Shown here in pieces: positions 1-7,474 of a DNA stretch of 64,000 nt. How positions within the stretch are numbered: position 1 is the first letter of the stretch; every line of letters starts with the position of its first letter. Both the position numbers and the translations under genes were made by a program. Under the pieces are notes generated by a model that was given only the letters and a program-made list of their open reading frames with translations, was not told the origin of the DNA and searched no databases. The DNA comes from Planctomycetota bacterium (lineage in GTDB: Bacteria > Planctomycetota > UBA1135 > UBA2386): assembly GCA_965223545.1 (NCBI GenBank), contig OZ245006.1, positions 6,848,001 through 6,912,000 of the forward strand, in the 5' to 3' direction.

Positions 1-1480
1 GTTTTCAGTCGAGAACAGCCGTGAGGGTATTGACCTTCTGCTGCGCCGTGCACAGGAAGGTGCCGAGGGTCCGGTGAGCTTCGTGATGGAACCAACGGGG
101 TTGGCGTGGCTGCCCATCGCGGCGCACGTGAACGCCGCAGGGTTCCAGATCTACGTGAGCAAACCACAGAAGCTGAGCGACCTGCGGAAGTTCTATAGCA
201 AGCACACCAAAACCGACGTAGTAGACGCCGAGGCCGCTGCGCGTCTGCCGCAGATGGATCCAAAGGGCGTCCACCAGCTGCGTGTTCCAACTGCCGACGA
301 GACGACGATCCGTCGACTCGTGAAGCGGCGTGAGCGGTTGGCGCGCGAGCTCAGCGACCACAAGCGTCGTGTGCACGCGATACTGGTACTGGCGAATCCC
401 AGCCTCATGAAGGCCTTGGGGGCAGAGAAGTTCAGTGCCGCTAAGATGGGGTTTCTGCGGCGCTACGTCGATCCGGTGAAAGCGGTCGGCCTTGGGAAGA
501 GTCGCTTGGAGCGCTTCTTGACGAAGCGATCCAAGGGAACGCATGACCCGTGCTTGGTCGACCGCGTGCTCGAGTCCTGCCGACAGGCCGCCGAGTACTA
601 CGCTGAGCTGCGAGCTGCGGGGCAGATGCCGTTCGACTACGAGGCCATCCAAGAGGATGTGGTGTACGAGCTGGATGAGATCGAGCGCAAGAACACGGAC
701 GTTCGCAAGCTCGACGCAAAGATCAAGAAGCTCTACCTGGGCGTCGATCCTGACCGAACACTCGAGCAACTGCGCGGCGTCGGTCCCACGATCGCTGCGG
801 CCATCGAAGCCTTGGTAGGCGACATCGCGCGGTTCTCGAACGGCAAGAAGTTCGTGAGCTACTGCGGACTGTGTCCACGCCGGAAGCAGACGGGCATGAG
901 CGACCCCTCGATGCCAATCACCAAAACCGGCCAACGAGTACTCAAGAAGTACCTCTACCTAGCAGCTGACGTCGCTCGCCAGTGGGATCCGGATTTCGCG
1001 GCGTACTACGCTCGCCGCTACGCCGCAGGTGATCACCACAACCTCATCCTCATCGCATTGGCTGGCAAGATGGCGCGCCGCGTCTACGCCCTCCTGAAGC
1101 GTCGCGACAGCCAGCGCGCCGATGACAAGCCGGCGTCGACGCAAGTCCGCTACGTCCTGCGAGACGCCGACGGCAACGAGCTCACGAAGGTTGCCGCGCG
1201 CGCGCTCATCGCAGCCAAGTTCACGCGCAGCATCGTCGCGCCACAGCGGCATGAGCGCGACCAACGGCGACAGGGACGAGTGGGGACTCCGACGACGAGG
1301 GACTTGAGTGGCCGCCCAATGGACGCCACAGGCCTGGCCGTGGAATCCCCACGTCAACCTCACCCGATCGGTGATCTCATGCAAGAACACTTCCCTGGTC
1401 TTGTGGAAGAGTCCTGAACAAGCCGTGCACACGCGATGTCGAGCCCCAGCGAAAACCCCTTGACATGACTTAGGAGATAT
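1..1480 (+). mobile_element. IS110-family element A (left end outside window), inserted in the 201-bp repeat
   Basis: Transposase ORF followed by a short right end with TTGACA at 1460-1465; repeat sequence (CAAACACGGAGC...) resumes abruptly at 1481. Confidence 0.8.
2..1417 (+). CDS. IS110-family DEDD transposase/recombinase (5'-truncated by window)
   Basis: Frame open from base 2; MEPTG, KTDVVDA, LRGVGPTIA, SYCGLCP..QTG, ITKTG..LKKYLY and IALAGKMAR motifs. Confidence 0.93.
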   Translation, partial: FSVENSREGIDLLLRRAQEGAEGPVSFVMEPTGLAWLPIAAHVNAAGFQIYVSKPQKLSDLRKFYSKHTKTDVVDAEAAARLPQMDPKGVHQLRVPTADETTIRRLVKRRERLARELSDHKRRVHAILVLANPSLMKALGAEKFSAAKMGFLRRYVDPVKAVGLGKSRLERFLTKRSKGTHDPCLVDRVLESCRQAAEYYAELRAAGQMPFDYEAIQEDVVYELDEIERKNTDVRKLDAKIKKLYLGVDPDRTLEQLRGVGPTIAAAIEALVGDIARFSNGKKFVSYCGLCPRRKQTGMSDPSMPITKTGQRVLKKYLYLAADVARQWDPDFAAYYARRYAAGDHHNLILIALAGKMARRVYALLKRRDSQRADDKPASTQVRYVLRDADGNELTKVAARALIAAKFTRSIVAPQRHERDQRRQGRVGTPTTRDLSGRPMDATGLAVESPRQPHPIGDLMQEHFPGLVEES

Positions 1481-1573
1481 CAAACACGGAGCGTTCCGCG
1501 ACCCGAGCGTGGGTTGCAGGTCCCGCGGTCGCCGGCGGCCGCGCTGAGCCCGGAGGCCAGTGTTGTCTTCGAG
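1481..1573 (+). repeat. 201-bp structured repeat, fragment between the two IS110 elements
   Basis: Matches the copies at 3131-3331, 24343-24543 and 46105-46311; continues at 3050 after element B. Confidence 0.93.
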
Positions 1574-1649
1574 ATGGGATGAGAGGGTCGATCCCTCCGA
1601 CGCAGTCGCCACACAATGGCGCTGCAAAATCAAAGGAGCAGATCGACCC

Positions 1650-2726
1650 ATGACCAAAGTTACCGCTCAGACCTCCCCCGTGACCATCGGTCTCGACATT
1701 GGCGATCGGAACATCCACTACTGCGCACTGGACGCGTCGCGGACGGTCGTTGCGCGGGGCAGTTTCCCGACGACGCCGACAGCGCTCTCGAAGGCGCTGA
1801 GCGACTTCCCGGGCGCCAGAGTCGCTCTCGAGGCCGGCTCGCAGTCGGCCTGGATGTCTCGGCGGTTGCGCTCGGAGGGCTACGACGTTCACGTCGTGGA
1901 CCCGCGCCGAGTGCAGCTGATCGCCAAGGATCCTCGCAAGACCGACCGGCGCGATGCCGAGACCCTGGCTCGCCTGGAGGCAGGGATGCCCGAGTTGCTC
2001 GGCACGATCCACCACCGCAGCGAGCAGGCACAGGCCGACCTGTCGGTCATTCGTGCGCGCGACCTGCTGGTGAGGATGCGGACGATGGCAGTGCAGCAGG
2101 TCCGGAGCCTGGCGAAGGGCTTCGGCGTCCGGCTGCCGTCGGCATCGACCGCGGCGTTCCCGAAGCGAGCTCGCGAGTCCATGCCGGTCCTGCTACTCAC
2201 TGCGGCGGAGCCGCTGCTGGACTTGATCGCCGACCTGTCCCGCCGGATCGACGAGCTCGACAAGGCGCTCGTCGAGGCGAGCCGCGAGCGATACCCCGAG
2301 GTCGCCGTCGTGCAGCAAGTCAACGGCGTGGGGCCGGTCACAGCGACCGCGTTCGTGCTGACGATCGAGGATCCGACACGATTCGCCGAAAGCCGCCGCG
2401 TGGGCTCCTGGCTCGGCTTGTGCCCAAAGAGCTTCGCGTCGGGCGACAGCAATCCGGAGCTGTCGATCAGCAAGGCTGGCGACGGCTATCTGAGACGGCT
2501 TCTGGTGCAGTGTGCGCACTACATCCTCGGCCCGTTCGGCAAGGACTGTGACCTCCGGCGCTTCGGGCAACGCCTGATCGCCCGCGGCGGCCGCGGCGCG
2601 AGGAAACGCGCGGCGGTCGCGGTTGCCCGCAAGCTCGCGCTACTGCTGCATCGGCTGTGGCGTCATGGCTTGGTCTACGACCCACTCCACAACAGCGACC
2701 GCGTAGCTGCCCACACCGCGGTATGA
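1650..2726 (+). CDS. IS110/IS1111 transposase (bridge recombinase)
   Basis: RBS AAGGAG; GLDIG, LEAG and KTDRRDA (DEDD); VNGVGPVTA; WLGLCP..ASG (catalytic Ser); ISKAGD..LRRLL; AVARKL. Confidence 0.96.
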   Translation: MTKVTAQTSPVTIGLDIGDRNIHYCALDASRTVVARGSFPTTPTALSKALSDFPGARVALEAGSQSAWMSRRLRSEGYDVHVVDPRRVQLIAKDPRKTDRRDAETLARLEAGMPELLGTIHHRSEQAQADLSVIRARDLLVRMRTMAVQQVRSLAKGFGVRLPSASTAAFPKRARESMPVLLLTAAEPLLDLIADLSRRIDELDKALVEASRERYPEVAVVQQVNGVGPVTATAFVLTIEDPTRFAESRRVGSWLGLCPKSFASGDSNPELSISKAGDGYLRRLLVQCAHYILGPFGKDCDLRRFGQRLIARGGRGARKRAAVAVARKLALLLHRLWRHGLVYDPLHNSDRVAAHTAV

Positions 2727-2759
2727 CCCAACCATGATCGCCCCACCCCCAACCAACCG

Positions 2760-2955
2760 AATACCGTGGAGGAACCTGGCGTGATGCCGCTCCTGCACTG
2801 CTGAAGACTCACCGCCCGATCCCGGCGACAGCGACCGGAGGCTTGGCCCTCGAGGCCGTTATCGAGAAAGCTGCGCCGGGTCGGACGGATCTCATCGTGC
2901 ACCGGTCTCGGACGAGGCCATCAGAGTGCGTATGGAAGCCTGCGGAGTCCGAAGC
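2760..2955 (+). ncRNA. Putative bridge RNA / seekRNA of element B
   Basis: 5' hairpin, then two stem-bounded internal loops whose unpaired segments match the target (2835-2843, 2862-2866) and the donor junction (2889-2896, 2932-2938); RNA ends approximate. Confidence 0.8.
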
Positions 2956-3049
2956 TTGTCGCGCAGGGCGGCGCCAAGGCGCCCAGATTCTCAAGAAGAA
3001 CAGATCCACAGACAAAGAGCTGTTGACGGGATCGCCCCTCTCATGGAAG

Positions 3050-3343
3050 CCTCCGGGAGTTGCGGTATCGAAGTCCCGGCGACGACAGGCCTTCCGAAAG
3101 GTTGTTGCCGCTCGAACATTCTCGGACCCGGAGGCTCAGCGCGGCCGAGGCCGCAACCAAGAACGGAGTATTCCGCGACCCGAGCATCGGCCGCGGGTCC
3201 GGCGGTCGCCGGCGGCCGCGCTGAGCCCAGAGGCCAGTGTTGTCTTCGAGCCTCCGGGAGCCGCGTTGTCGAAGTTCCAGCGGCATCGAGCCTTCCGAAA
3301 GGTTTTCGCCGCGCGAAGATTTGCGGACCCGGAGGCTCAGCGC
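3050..3343 (+). repeat. 201-bp structured repeat, about 1.5 tandem units
   Basis: GAGGCTCAGCGC recurs at 3131 and 3332 (period 201); nested inverted repeats. Confidence 0.95.
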
Positions 3344-4167
3344 ATCAGCGGGCTGGCCTGCGCGAAGGTCCAGCGGTTGCCTTCGGGATCGGCGGCCTCG
3401 TAGGCGCGGAAGCCGTGCTGGTGGATGTCTTTGATGATCTCTGCGCCGTGCGCTTTGGCGTGTGCGAAGTGTGCGTCGAGGTCGGCGACGTGGATGAACG
3501 GTGTGTGGGTGATTGGCGTGTCCGCGACGGCGGTGGCTTCGCGGCCGCAGAGGATGATCGCGCCATTCCCGATGCGGAACTCGATCCAGCTGTGGCTCGG
3601 GTCGTTGGGCTCGACTTCGGGGACGCTGTTTGCGGGCTCGAAGCCGAAGACATCGCGCAGCCAGCGCCCGGCGGCTGCGGGCTCGGCGTAGTGGACGACG
3701 ACGGCGAGCCGCGCCAGGGGCAACGGCTCAGGGGGGACGTGATCGCGCTTTTGGATCCAGTCGTTCAGCCAGACCGGGCTCATCCGTACCCATGCCGTTC
3801 CGCCCTTGTCCTCGCCGCCGTCCGGGATCGTGGCCTGCACGTTCACCTCCGTGCCGCCCGCGCTCATCTCGAAGCGAACGTCGATCTCGACGTCGTCCAA
3901 AGAGCTCGTCCACGCAACCCGCTTGCCTGGCTCCCAGACGGTGATGCGCGCGAGCTCGAGGCCGTCGCCCGTCTCCTCGTCGTAGACCTCGACGATCCGA
4001 CCGCCGACTCCGGGCTCCATCCGCATGTAGTACGCCCGAGCGGTGTCGAAGAAGTTGATCGGGCCCTGGATCCACCAGCGGTCGAGCTCCTTCGTAAAGA
4101 CCTCGAAGGCGGTGGCGGGATCGACGGCGACCTCGATCGATGAGTTCACTGTGCGGGGAGTGGTCAC
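3337..4167 (-). CDS. SRPBCC (AHSA1/START-like) plus VOC/glyoxalase fusion protein
   Basis: IEVAVDPATAFEVFT..WW N-domain; WLRDVFGF and YEAADPEGNRWTF C-domain; GTGA overlap with the upstream regulator. Confidence 0.85.
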   Translation of the reverse strand: MTTPRTVNSSIEVAVDPATAFEVFTKELDRWWIQGPINFFDTARAYYMRMEPGVGGRIVEVYDEETGDGLELARITVWEPGKRVAWTSSLDDVEIDVRFEMSAGGTEVNVQATIPDGGEDKGGTAWVRMSPVWLNDWIQKRDHVPPEPLPLARLAVVVHYAEPAAAGRWLRDVFGFEPANSVPEVEPNDPSHSWIEFRIGNGAIILCGREATAVADTPITHTPFIHVADLDAHFAHAKAHGAEIIKDIHQHGFRAYEAADPEGNRWTFAQASPLMR

Positions 4168-4508
4168 TTCTTCTTCCTCCGTTCGACGTGTCGCTTGAAC
4201 GAGCGCAGCTGGGCGTCCCACTCCTGCTGGAGCCGTTCCAGCCACTCGTTCACCGCCTGCATGGATTGCGGGCGCAGGCGGAAGACCCGCCCCCGAGCGT
4301 CCTCTCGTGGACGCTCGTCGGTGGCGATTCCGGCGTCGAGCAGGACGCGCAGGTGCCGGCTCATGGTCGGCGGTGAGGTCCGCGTCGCCGCTGCAAGCTC
4401 CCCCGCGCGGCGCGGCCGCGAGCCGAGCAGCTCGACGACCGAGCGCCGCGTGGGATCGGCGAGCGCGTGGAAGACGCGATCGACCGTGGCCACGGATGCT
4501 TTTACCAT
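4164..4508 (-). CDS. ArsR/SmtB family transcriptional regulator
   Basis: VFHALADPTRRSVVELL...MSRHLRVL motif. Confidence 0.92.
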   Translation of the reverse strand: MVKASVATVDRVFHALADPTRRSVVELLGSRPRRAGELAAATRTSPPTMSRHLRVLLDAGIATDERPREDARGRVFRLRPQSMQAVNEWLERLQQEWDAQLRSFKRHVERRKKK

Positions 4509-4516
4509 AGGTGGCA

Positions 4517-4545
4517 ATAATTATCAAAATCAGCAAGTATGTCAA
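4517..4545 (-). promoter_or_regulatory. Sigma70-type promoter of the ArsR-SRPBCC pair
   Basis: TTGACA (4545-4540, minus strand) followed by AT-rich GATAATTATT just upstream of the start codon. Confidence 0.55.
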
Positions 4546-4726
4546 CTCCGCGACCGCAGTGTACGCCGGGAGCGGCGCGGTGGCGGATCGATGCGACCAC
4601 CGCACATCGTGAGGATCCGACTCACGCCTCGAGGGTGTGGTCACAAGAGCGGCCACTTCGATCGCCATCCGCGATCGAGGCATGAATGCACCCTCGCAGC
4701 GACAGAGACGAACGTGTGGAGATCCC

Positions 4727-5560
4727 ATGTCCGACGACACCCTCGAGCCCCTTGCAATCCAAGACATTCGTCCCGCCAACGCGGACGCGGCCCGCACTTG
4801 GAGCAATGGCGGGCACGCCTACGACGAGATCAGCCGGCAGATTGCCGACGCGATCGAGCACGGCGTCGATCGGCTGGATCCCCGGCCGGGGCAGCGGATC
4901 CTCGATATCGCGACCGGTACCGGTTGGGCGGCGCGCCGCATCGCGGGTCGCGGAGCTCATGTCACCGGCGTCGATTTCGGCGCCGACGTCATCGAAGCGG
5001 CGCGCCGTATCGGCACGTGTGATCGCCTCGAGTTCGTGGTCGGGGACGCCGAGGATCTGCCGTTCCCGGACGAGACCTTCGATGGCGTGATCTCGACCTT
5101 TGGCGTCATGTTCTGCGGCGATCCCGAGGGCGCGGCCGCCGAGCTGGCCCGCGTCTGCAAGCCGGGCGGCAGGCTCGCGCTCACCAACTGGGCGGCCACG
5201 GGCACCGTGCGCGCGATGTTCGAGCTGATCCAGCGGTACCGGCCGGCGCCGCAAACGGCCAGGCTGCCGTCACCATTCGACTGGGGCCGGCGTGAGTGCG
5301 TCCACAAATGGCTGGGGACGTGGTTCGATCTCGGGTTCGAGGACGCCATCTCCTACTGCAGAGCGAAGGACGGAGCGGCCGTATGGGAGGCCTTCGCCGC
5401 CGGCTTCGGGCCGGTTGTCACCTTGAGTCGCCAGCTCAGCCGCGCCACGCTGGCGCAATTCCGGGCCGAGTTCGAGAGGTTCCACGATCGCTTTCGAACG
5501 GATGCCGGTGTCCTCGTGGAGCGTTCCTACGTCGTGGCGGTCGGCGAGCGCGTCGCGTGA
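4727..5560 (+). CDS. Class I SAM-dependent methyltransferase
   Basis: ILDIATGTG, VTGVD, GDAEDLPFPDETFD and ELARVCKPGGRL motifs; RBS GGAG. Confidence 0.92.
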   Translation: MSDDTLEPLAIQDIRPANADAARTWSNGGHAYDEISRQIADAIEHGVDRLDPRPGQRILDIATGTGWAARRIAGRGAHVTGVDFGADVIEAARRIGTCDRLEFVVGDAEDLPFPDETFDGVISTFGVMFCGDPEGAAAELARVCKPGGRLALTNWAATGTVRAMFELIQRYRPAPQTARLPSPFDWGRRECVHKWLGTWFDLGFEDAISYCRAKDGAAVWEAFAAGFGPVVTLSRQLSRATLAQFRAEFERFHDRFRTDAGVLVERSYVVAVGERVA

Positions 5561-5662
5561 CCCGTAGCTCACGCATGGACGGTCGAGACCCCACCAGCAA
5601 ACGCCGGTGGGTCGTTGCGGCTTGAGGACGGCCCACCCGTGCTCGATCATGATCGCGGCGCG

Positions 5663-7474
5663 ATGCCTGCCCCAGTCTTCTCCATCGTCGTGGTGCCGTT
5701 TCGGAACCTGTCCACGGATCCGGAGACCGACTACTTCGCGCGTGGCTTCGTCGAGGACTTGATCGCCGACCTGACGCGCTTCCGCGAGCTACGCGTGCTG
5801 GCTCGAGACAGCGCCTTCGAGCTGGCCTCGCTCGACAAGCCGTCCGAGTCGGTAGCACGGGAATGGGGAGCCGACTACCTCCTTACGGGCAGCGTACGGC
5901 GCCGCGACGATGGACTGCGGGTCACGACGCAGCTGGTCGGCGCCGTCGACAAAGACGTCATCTGGGCCGAGCGATTCGACGCTCCTGTCGAGTCGGTGTT
6001 CGAGATCCAGGACGCGATCACCGCCTCGGTCGCCGGCAAGCTGGCCGTCCGCGTCGGCGACCAGCGGCTCCAACGAGCGCGCAGTCGCTCGATGGGCGAG
6101 TTGCAGGCCTACGACTGCTGGCTGCGTGGGCTCGAACACCTGCGCCGCGGGACTCTCGAGGACGACGCCGAGTCGCGCCCCTTCTTTCAGCGCGCTCTCG
6201 AGATCGATCCGGACTACGCGCGGGCCTATACGGGGTTGTCCATCTCCCACTTCAACGAGTGGACGTGCCAAGCCTGGCATCTGTTCGACGAGAGTGGCGA
6301 AGGAGCGTTCCACTACGCGCAGCGCGCCGCAGAACTCGGCAGCGGCGACGCCATGGTGCAGGCGGTATTGGCGCGGGTCCATCGCTTCCGGCTCGAACAC
6401 GCCGAGGCCGACCAGCGCGCCGCGCGCGCGCTGGCGCTCAACCCCAACGACCCCAACGTGCTGATCCACATCGCGATCGCGACGCTGTTCAGTGGCGATC
6501 CCGAAGCGGCGCACGAGCTGGCAACGAGGGCGATCGACCTCAATCCGCTCCACGGTGCGTGGTACGGTGGGGTCGCCGGCTGGAGCCTCTTCATGGCCGG
6601 GGAAACCGCAACGGCTCTCCGCCTTCTCGACGAAGCCGGCGACTCCATCGTCAACTTCGCGGCCTATCGCGCCGCCTGCCATGCTCTGTTGGGCGACCAC
6701 GTCTCGGCGGCTCGCGCCTATGCCGATTTCGAGCGTGAGTATCGTGACAAGATCGCTTTCGGGCGCGCGCCCGGGCCGAGCGAGGCTCTGCGCTGGGCAG
6801 TGCAGGTCGAGCCGTTCCGCCGCCTCGAAGACTCGCGCCGGATGCCCGAGGCGCTGCGCGCCGCGGGTATCGCCGATGTCGACGTGCAAGCCGCTCTGGA
6901 CGGTCGTCCGCGCACGATGGTCCAACCCGCCGGCATCCTCAGCCCGCCCGGCAGTGTGTTCCGCAGGGACGATGACGTCTGGGTGATCCGGTTCGACGGC
7001 GCCGGTGCGCGACTGGTCGGATTGAAGGGCTTTCACGACTTGGTTCGGCTGTTGCGCGAACCTGGCGTGCCGATCCACTGCCTCGAGCTCTCAGGCGCTC
7101 CTCCCGCACACGAGTCACGCCACGACGTGCTCGACGCCGATGCCCGCCAGGACTACCGCCGCCGGATTGAAGAGTTGCAGGCCGACGTCGAGCGGGCCCA
7201 ACGCGACAACGATCCCGGTCTGACCGAACGGTTGCGTGCCGAGCTCGACGCGTTGATCGACGAGCTCACCAAGGCCAGCGGGATGGGGGGACGATCCCGC
7301 AATCTCGATCGTCGCGTGGAGCGGGCCCGCACGGCGACCACCTGGCGGATTCGCAGCGCCATCAAGAAGATCGCTTCCGCCCATCCGCGCCTCGGGCAGC
7401 ACCTCGATAACTCCGTCCGCACGGGCACCTTCTGCGTCTATTCGCCCGAGCGCAACGTGGTCTGGGAGCTGTAG
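5663..7474 (+). CDS. TolB-like N-domain plus TPR protein with C-terminal regulator-type domain
   Basis: IVVVPFRNLS..DYFARG, WAERFD, FEIQDAI; TPR helices; C-terminal ERART..IRSAIKKI..LDNSVRTG. Confidence 0.8.
   Translation: MPAPVFSIVVVPFRNLSTDPETDYFARGFVEDLIADLTRFRELRVLARDSAFELASLDKPSESVAREWGADYLLTGSVRRRDDGLRVTTQLVGAVDKDVIWAERFDAPVESVFEIQDAITASVAGKLAVRVGDQRLQRARSRSMGELQAYDCWLRGLEHLRRGTLEDDAESRPFFQRALEIDPDYARAYTGLSISHFNEWTCQAWHLFDESGEGAFHYAQRAAELGSGDAMVQAVLARVHRFRLEHAEADQRAARALALNPNDPNVLIHIAIATLFSGDPEAAHELATRAIDLNPLHGAWYGGVAGWSLFMAGETATALRLLDEAGDSIVNFAAYRAACHALLGDHVSAARAYADFEREYRDKIAFGRAPGPSEALRWAVQVEPFRRLEDSRRMPEALRAAGIADVDVQAALDGRPRTMVQPAGILSPPGSVFRRDDDVWVIRFDGAGARLVGLKGFHDLVRLLREPGVPIHCLELSGAPPAHESRHDVLDADARQDYRRRIEELQADVERAQRDNDPGLTERLRAELDALIDELTKASGMGGRSRNLDRRVERARTATTWRIRSAIKKIASAHPRLGQHLDNSVRTGTFCVYSPERNVVWEL

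Follow-up and report, generated by a model that had tools for sequence, protein, structure and literature searches.

An IS1111-type insertion sequence from a Planctomycetota bacterium with a probable 3′-encoded bridge/seekRNA and readable target and donor guides

The downstream non-coding region of an IS1111-type insertion sequence from a Planctomycetota bacterium very probably encodes a + strand bridge/seekRNA of about 140 nt that guides both target and donor recognition. The element lies in a 64,000-nucleotide stretch of contig OZ245006.1 (assembly GCA_965223545.1, positions 6,848,001 to 6,912,000), hereafter the window, in whose coordinates all positions are given. It spans 1574–3049 on the + strand of a host genome of 8.1 Mb and 70% G+C, and its sequence features indicate an intact, apparently active IS1111-type member of the IS110 family. 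A preliminary description had proposed an IS1111-type RNA-guided recombinase with a 3′ bridge/seekRNA, and protein profiles, the catalytic motif, the element ends, the position of the non-coding DNA and guide covariation support this assignment. The features observed are the anatomy of the element, four guide matches, a scaffold with compensated helices, and covariation of guides with flanks and ends.

Comparison of the filled site with an empty one fixes the boundaries of the element and its length of 1476 bp, which includes the right-hand AG core copy. The empty site is an uninterrupted unit of a repetitive extragenic palindromic (REP)-like repeat at 3172–3345, which reads GTCTTCG-AG-CCTCCGG. 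The filled site has GTCTTCG-AG (core at 1572–1573) joined to ATGGGATGAGAGGG on the left and CCCCTCTCATGGA-AG (core at 3048–3049) joined to CCTCCGG on the right, with the AG core at both junctions when filled and once when empty. The left target flank, GTTGTCTTCG-AG, covers 1562–1573 and the right target flank, CCTCCGGGAGTT, covers 3050–3061, both placed from the empty-site comparison and the genomic copies. The left end (1574–1595) comprises a 5-nt extension, ATGGG, and the left subterminal inverted repeat ATGAGAGGGTCGATCCC, a motif also present in relatives, while the right end (3028–3049) comprises the subterminal inverted repeat GGGATCGCCCCTCTCAT, the extension GGA and the core AG. These repeats span 17 bp with 1 mismatch and are inset by 5 nt on the left and 3 nt on the right, within the 7–17 bp expected of subterminal inverted repeats with short extensions in the IS1111 group. 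Also typical of this group, the long stretch of non-coding DNA that follows the transposase gene measures about 323–324 nt (2727–3049), against 76 nt upstream (1574–1649).

The genome contains three copies with 100% identity over 1500 bp, a point in favour of recent activity, and a rearranged fourth. All four occupy one repeat position in one orientation relative to the repeat, CTT(C/T)CG-AG followed by CCTCCGG, in line with the IS110-family pattern of one specific site and orientation, a shared core dinucleotide and no long target duplication. The target and circle junction deduced in the preliminary description are thus correct, as the empty site fixes the boundaries and the four copies have the site in common. 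The unoccupied 14-bp target occurs in 54 exact copies in the genome, one of which, CTTCGAGCCTCCGG, lies in the neighbouring repeat unit at 3244–3257 on the + strand; about 0.2 copies of such a 14-mer would be expected by chance, as estimated from base composition. The 12-bp part that the guides read occurs 61 times. The REP-like repeat is partly palindromic and about 170–300 bp long (window 1488–1573 and 3050–3345), with at least 214 blastn matches in the genome. No solo copies of the RNA gene were found in the genome, which holds just the four element copies and 1 partial duplicate. Loose ends at 1573 and 3048 in contigs X1 and X4 resemble the empty site; they could stem from any of the 54 unoccupied repeats and are not used as evidence of excision.

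The transposase gene (1650–2726, + strand) encodes a 358-residue protein and is preceded by an AAAGGAG ribosome-binding site 11 nt upstream. The protein carries the N-terminal RuvC-like DEDD domain and the C-terminal Transposase_20 domain that define the IS110 family, matching PF01548 with 64.8 bits (cut-off 29) and PF02371 with 69.8 bits (cut-off 21.3). It also passes the NF033542 profile, 'IS110 family RNA-guided transposase', with 230 bits against a curated cut-off of 140. Its only relatives in the PDB are ISCro4 (E 2.6e-8) and IS621 (E 5e-8). The region of the catalytic serine, GLCPKSFASG, aligns with GLTPRRYESG of IS621 and has the conserved-serine pattern G--P----SG; Siddiquee et al. (PMC11187229) name the motif GL-P----SG for these transposases. 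Plasmid-borne relatives share at most 34% identity. In pairwise comparison, IS4321-family transposases match residues 13–293, with 28% identity over 78% of the length, while IS621 matches residues 189–347 only.

The predicted RNA-coding region covers about 2812–2952 on the + strand (approximately 141 nt), its extent estimated from conserved helices, and every string, stem and segment named in the preliminary description is present where it was placed. The first helix, P1, has its 5′ strand CCCGGCGACAGC (CCCGGCG-A-CAGC) at 2821–2832 and its 3′ strand GCTGCGCCGGG (GCTG-CGCCGGG) at 2870–2880, and closes a target-binding loop. Within this loop, the 5′ target guide CCGGAGGCT (2835–2843) shows 9/9 pairing with the + strand sequence AG-CCTCCGG, that is, the core and right flank. 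It is followed by the P2 hairpin, GGCC-CTCGA-GGCC (2845–2857), and by the 3′ target guide slot TATCGAG (2860–2866), which matches at 5/7 positions. The matching part, TCGAG at 2862–2866, equals TCG of the left flank plus the AG core, five contiguous matches of which three lie in the flank and two in the core. The choice of this TCGAG as guide agrees with the register in relatives, where the guide stands 3 nt before the P1 3′ strand. A second TCGAG, at 2850–2854, was considered as the 3′ guide and rejected; it forms the loop of the P2 hairpin and lacks that register. Because the 3′ target guide matches only five contiguous bases, the guides read 12 bp rather than the 14 bp of specificity first proposed.

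Downstream of P1 lies TCGGAC (2881–2886), which forms the 5′ strand of a second stem or, alternatively, an extension of P1 with CCGA at 2816–2819. The 5′ donor guide ATCTCATC (2889–2896) pairs with the + strand sequence G-ATGGGAT, the core G plus the left end, through 7 Watson-Crick pairs and 1 rU-dG wobble, confirming the single wobble noted earlier. An inner arm at 2898–2930 consists of the helix P4 (TGCAC/GTGCG) enclosing the hairpin GGTCTCG-GA-CGAGGCC. The 3′ donor guide ATGGAAG (2932–2938) is identical at 7/7 positions to the right end plus core at 3043–3049 and therefore pairs with the bottom strand. In the 3′ tail (2942–2952), GCGG at 2942–2945 faces CCGC at 2812–2815 in a helix termed P0, and GTCCGA at 2947–2952 faces TCGGAC at 2881–2886. 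The arrangement is that expected of a bridge/seekRNA: complements of both target strands sit in a P1-closed loop and overlap at the core, and a second pair of segments matches the joined ends. In 20000 dinucleotide-preserving shuffles of 2727–3027, the 9-mer CCGGAGGCT appeared in 54 and ATGGAAG in 529, and none contained all four matches in the correct order.

A scan of one genome per species yielded 31 related loci, with 39–62% protein identity. They come from metagenome-assembled genomes (MAGs) labelled Planctomycetota, Acidobacteriota, Myxococcota, Chloroflexota and others, the nearest being Planctomycetota MAGs. The RNA alignment comprised 22 of the 32 sequences. L008 and L036 were left out as identical in RNA to L007, L011 and L032 as near-identical to L010, L018, L028 and L037 because their contigs end before the region, and L033, L034 and L035 as partial or degenerate. 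On this alignment RNAalifold recovers P1 (CCGGGYG-A-CUGC/GCAG-CRCCCGG), P2 and P4 (UGCAC/GUGCG). Across 19 scaffold pairs, 93.9% of cells are paired, and both partners vary in 13 of the 19; on each measure all 500 shuffles fell short, and slid controls were 21–47% paired. The pairs in which both partners vary include 8 of 10 in P1 and all 4 in P2, and P4 pairs are conserved in 20–22 of the 22 sequences. The window itself carries a compensatory change in P1, CAGC/GCTG against the consensus CTGC/GCAG. U-G pairs occur in P1 in 4 sequences and in P4 in 20 of 22, and the guides contain mismatches with U opposite G, for instance in L007. On the other strand such pairs would become C-A, which indicates that the RNA is read from the + strand.

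The ends of the relatives were recognised by the motif ATGAG[AG][AGC]GG ... CC[TCG][TC]CTCAT. Its left-end part lies upstream of the gene in 25 of the 31 relatives, and both ends could be recognised in 19. These 19 and the window have nearly constant ends, AG-ATGGG-ATGAGAAGG...CCTTCTCAT-GGA-AG, with flanks that are unrelated between loci. Constant donor ends with changing targets provide the situation needed for a covariation test. In an unanchored version, which left out L008 and L036 as duplicates of L007, the stretch 120–260 nt from the right end was searched for either of two strings: the 7 bases that open the right flank, taken as reverse complement, or the 5 bases that close the left flank, followed by AG. 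Exact 7-nt matches of the 5′ guide were found in 8 of 18 own comparisons against 1 of 306 cross comparisons, and of the 3′ guide in 7 of 17 against 1 of 272; for neither guide did any of 20000 permutations reach the observed sum.

An anchored version read the guides at fixed columns of the 22 aligned RNA regions, with rU-dG and rG-dT wobble accepted as matches in the 5′ guide and no positional freedom given to the 3′ guide. The 5′ guide matched its own flank at 8/9 or better in 15 of 20 elements (9 of 380 cross comparisons), and the 3′ guide at 6/7 or better in 16 of 21 (8 of 420). Perfect own matches include L020 (CAGCGGACT/TGCCGAG), L024 (CGCGCGGCT/CGCTCAG), L031 (TCCCGCACT/TCTAAAG) and L027 (AAGTGGATT). 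The window's own 3′ target guide, at 5/7, is among the weaker ones. Guide segments therefore covary with insertion sites while the scaffold stays conserved, as a bridge/seekRNA would require, and the relatives display natural re-direction. The preliminary description had named covariation of guides with flanks as a check; the target slots do track their own flanks, and the right donor guide changes with the right-end extension.

Individual relatives depart from the common pattern. In L017 (3872–3895), the right end CATGGAAGGAAG has its terminal 4 nt repeated, and the guide fits the flank only with the repeat counted as part of the element. L027 has AA instead of AG at its right junction, and its guide ends in TT. 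The right flank of L030, GCTTTCAGGCAGAGAGCGAA, recurs inside its own 3′ non-coding region (around 3620–3650), and its 5′ guide matches the flank at only 5/9; this locus may represent another nested or self-insertion. L007, L008 and L036, all from one MAG, have identical RNA and right flanks together with three different left flanks that share just CTG-AG (7/7, 6/7 and 5/7 to the 3′ guide), which suggests that few left-flank bases are needed.

Several results, including those on the donor side given further below, weigh against a functional bridge/seekRNA. The 3′ target guide slot is short in effect, with TATCGAG in place of the expected CTTCGAG, two mismatches in 7 nt. In five of the 20 relatives the match to the right flank does not exceed 7/9 (L026 and L030 at 5/9, L025 at 6/9, L016 and L021 at 7/9). 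Two choices were made post hoc: the right boundary of L017 was moved by 4 nt after the mismatch had been seen, and the right core of L027 was read as AA. An Rfam scan of window positions 1–6000, with E up to 1, returned no matching family. The suggested fold of the region gave a mixed outcome. The minimum free energy structure of 2727–3050 does contain P1 and P2, the first stem and its hairpin, but the region is no stabler than its shuffles (z = -0.41, 28 of 100 folding as well), so that stability by itself is uninformative. On expression, no RNA run is listed among the sequencing runs carrying the sequence (4 carriers of unstated kind, from one study), and the single RNA run mapped, a poly-A run from another organism, gave 0 reads. 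A scan of 1480–3150 found neither a sigma-70-like promoter nor an intrinsic terminator.

Could the four matches be fragments of the REP-like repeat left by earlier insertions, or chance occurrences in GC-rich DNA, rather than guides? The 9-mer CCGGAGGCT is indeed also found within the repeat itself, for example at 3117–3135, and the lack of excess fold stability likewise speaks for such an origin. Against this stand the ordered set of four matches, which no shuffle reproduced, the compensatory changes in the helices, and the relatives at unrelated sites, whose two slots, set in a conserved scaffold, correspond to the respective flanks. We consider this explanation very improbable.

The donor is nearly constant across relatives, and little of its variation is therefore usable for covariation. 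The right donor guide is nevertheless informative, reading ATAGAAG in 4 of 4 elements with the extension AGA (L022, L025, L026 and L031) and ATGGAAG in 16 of 16 with GGA. The transposase tree requires at least two independent changes of the right-end label, with L022 placed as sister to L023 at 97/93 support. On the left, the guide has U opposite A in 4 of 4 elements with an ATGAG left end, and C or U in ATGGG elements; matched changes are seen in L013 (ATAGT with ACTAT) and L022 (ATGGA with TCCATC). Scores of the left donor guide overlap, own values being mostly 5/7 and cross values mostly 4–5/7, and family-wide covariation is weak. This overlap makes it the least secure of the four guides. 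An 8/8 left-donor match that tolerates wobble, as is needed here too, arose in 2129 of the 20000 shuffles (about 11%), and the match is accordingly weak on its own.

These weaknesses bear on the alternative of a short seekRNA, in which only the first stem-loop (about 2812–2880) would guide, the protein would read the ends through the inverted repeats, and the so-called donor guides would be kept as part of a protein scaffold or of a processing or terminator structure. An 82-nt ISEc11 seekRNA with only two target matches supported movement better than the long form in the account drawn on from PMC11187229, and its sufficiency suggests that a donor loop may be dispensable in the IS1111 group, a further point against guided donor recognition. 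Long IS1111-type inverted repeats could be read by a protein, the left donor match has the frequency in shuffles and the weak covariation just described, and the stem that closes the donor part lacks conservation. The right donor segment, however, tracks the right-end extension in 20 of 20 elements through those independent changes, the left segment never has C opposite A and shows the matched changes of L013 and L022, and both donor segments are unpaired and adjoin an inner helix that is strictly conserved, an arrangement also seen in the donor loop of IS621. A short seekRNA is therefore judged unlikely, and an RNA that guides both target and donor is preferred.

The closure of the donor part varies within the family. 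The second stem TCGGAC/GTCCGA described earlier is present, but only L007 and L009 share it with the window in identical form. The three sequences group as a single clade (support 100/100), and a stem identical within one clade gives no covariation signal. As a family-wide feature it was rejected, a 6-bp helix of that type being found for 8 of 22 own combinations and 73 of 462 cross combinations (135 of 20000 permutations as high). In most other relatives, P0 forms between a 5-mer that closely precedes P1 and another that follows the right donor guide at a distance of 3 nt, with the matched variants CCGCC/GGCGG, CTGCC/GGCAG, TCGCC/GGCGA, TCCCC/GGGGA, ACGTC/GACGT and ATGTC/GACAT. All 5 bp of P0 are found in 12 of 22 own combinations, compared with 130 of 462 cross combinations; 4 of 20000 permutations were as high. 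The window has a 4-bp version, the CCGC/GCGG pairing given above, which crosses the second stem. In the window's clade, this crossing would imply a pseudoknot or a two-conformer switch, and such a switch could gate donor binding.

The fourth genomic copy (G000:C1:7063400-7067900, loci L004–L006) contains an exact tandem duplication of 183 bp corresponding to window 2867–3049. At its joint, the right end ...CATGGA-AG is followed by AAAGCTG, which places the element end immediately past the AG of TCG-AG, the DNA that specifies the 3′ target guide. The joint fits half-site recombination inside another copy followed by deletion, but may also reflect an ordinary duplication. If it arose by recombination, it hints that a half-site, the left target plus core, can suffice. 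In addition, a 2.5-kb insertion with the ends TAACTGTTCCGG.../...CCGGAACAGTTA and the duplicated sequence GGCTCGCAG interrupts this copy at about codon 63. Taken jointly, one may picture the bridge RNA of this lineage as a three-way junction, closed by P0 with the donor guides as junction strands, rather than as tandem stem-loops, with a pseudoknot or switch in the window's clade and, separately, half-site recombination. We offer this combined picture tentatively, as one that is more probably wrong than right.

We infer transcription, protein binding and catalysis from these features. A bridge/seekRNA of about 140 nt would arise by + strand transcription of the 3′ non-coding region; in it, P1 would close an internal loop whose 5′ side, CCGGAGGCU, would pair with the + strand of the core and right flank. 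The target-loop segments would jointly select CTTCG-AG followed by CCTCCGG in the REP-like repeat. The donor segments AUCUCAUC and AUGGAAG would flank the inner arm, each pairing with one strand of the joined ends, CATGGA-AG-ATGGGAT. If the mechanism resembles that of IS621, an RNA-bound DEDD/serine recombinase would then unite the circularised element and its target, with strand exchange at the shared AG (CT). Such an RNA may also be programmable and may bind the transposase, properties that we infer from the same data.

A candidate source of the transcript is the junction of the circle itself. A -35-like box, TTGACG, lies at 3022–3027 on the + strand, and the joined ends would place GAAG+AT (3046–3049 plus 1574–1575) as a putative -10 box after an 18-nt spacer. 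TTGAC also occurs 16–22 nt from the right end in the relatives inspected. A promoter formed on end joining has been reported for the IS1111 type (PMC11187229). The conserved TTGAC near the right end suggests that the transposase, together with the RNA, may be expressed mainly from the circular form.

The comparisons that follow refer to those parts of two 2024 reports that are drawn on here. Siddiquee et al. 2024 (PMC11187229) describe IS1111-type elements as having a long downstream non-coding region, subterminal repeats and a seekRNA that co-purifies with the transposase. In these seekRNAs the top strand is matched by the complement in the first segment and the bottom strand by that in the second, an order opposite to that of the IS110 type, and close relatives keep the stem while swapping guide segments ('natural re-direction'). 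The present element resembles ISEc11, ISPa11, ISKpn4 and ISPst6 in its downstream non-coding region, subterminal repeats, GL-P----SG motif and guides that diverge on a conserved stem. The segment order, with the top-strand complement first, is likewise the same, and the -35 box near the right end fits a circle-closure promoter (PMC11187229). In contrast, the protein is distant from theirs and has 358 residues against a quoted 330–350 (PMC11187229). The donor-matching segments readable here are without description for IS1111-type seekRNAs in those parts of PMC11187229, and the present element is known from its sequence.

Durrant et al. 2024 (PMC11208160) report that the loops of the IS621 bridge RNA have guides of 8–9 nt on the 5′ side and 4–7 nt on the 3′ side, with the core included in every pairing, and predict that 93% of IS1111-group elements carry a bridge RNA in their right end. 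As in IS621 (structures 8wt6 and others), a single RNA here has target and donor loops, the core takes part in each pairing and the target lies in a repetitive extragenic repeat. The CT core, read on the bottom strand here, and guide lengths of 9 and 5–7 nt match as well (PMC11208160). However, the RNA is specified by the 3′ end, not the 5′ end, the strands read by its 5′ and 3′ sides are swapped relative to the gene, and the present element has long inverted repeats. The donor segments of most relatives are closed by a helix of 5′ leader and 3′ tail, which would give a three-way junction in place of a second independent stem-loop, and protein similarity to IS621 is detectable only in the C-terminal half (E 5e-8).

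IS4321/IS5075 of the IS1111 group offer a further comparison. Their DEDD transposase is comparable in size, their subterminal inverted repeats likewise bear short terminal extensions, their 3′ non-coding region is long, and they too insert into a repeated sequence at a single position and in a single orientation. They differ in their target, which is the terminal repeats of transposons, in their inverted repeats (ATGGTCACTCCC) and in the protein (28% identity). By-eye comparison with an IS4321 plasmid copy found no evident sequence shared between its ends and 3′ region and the present scaffold.

The first 6 kb of the window contain two IS110-family transposase genes. The second belongs to an unrelated IS110-family element at window 1–1487, which continues for about 480 bp upstream of the window, encodes a transposase of more than 447 residues and has 11 near-identical copies in the genome. 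Its guide RNA presumably lies upstream. On the right the element terminates in ...GGAGATATCAAA next to variants of the REP-like repeat, some 85 bp before the point at which the IS1111-type element is inserted. As both elements adjoin this repeat, they appear to share one repeat family as a landing pad. Downstream of the repeats, window 3337–4517 holds two open reading frames on the - strand (3337–4160 and 4164–4517), apparently ordinary genes as judged from the open reading frame list; the latter may encode an ArsR/SmtB-like small regulator.

The element fits the published points yet is distant in sequence, which makes it a further member of a class first described in 2024 and not a new kind, and it leaves the known mechanism unchanged. 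It adds a readable IS1111-type bridge recombinase from a high-GC environmental lineage, far from the orthologues studied so far, and documents a repeat family that serves two different IS110-family elements as a landing pad. The approximately 20 related elements with readable targets, donors and guide slots form a natural 'reprogramming series' on a conserved scaffold. This series is useful for the choice of orthologues and for learning which guide positions tolerate wobble and mismatch.

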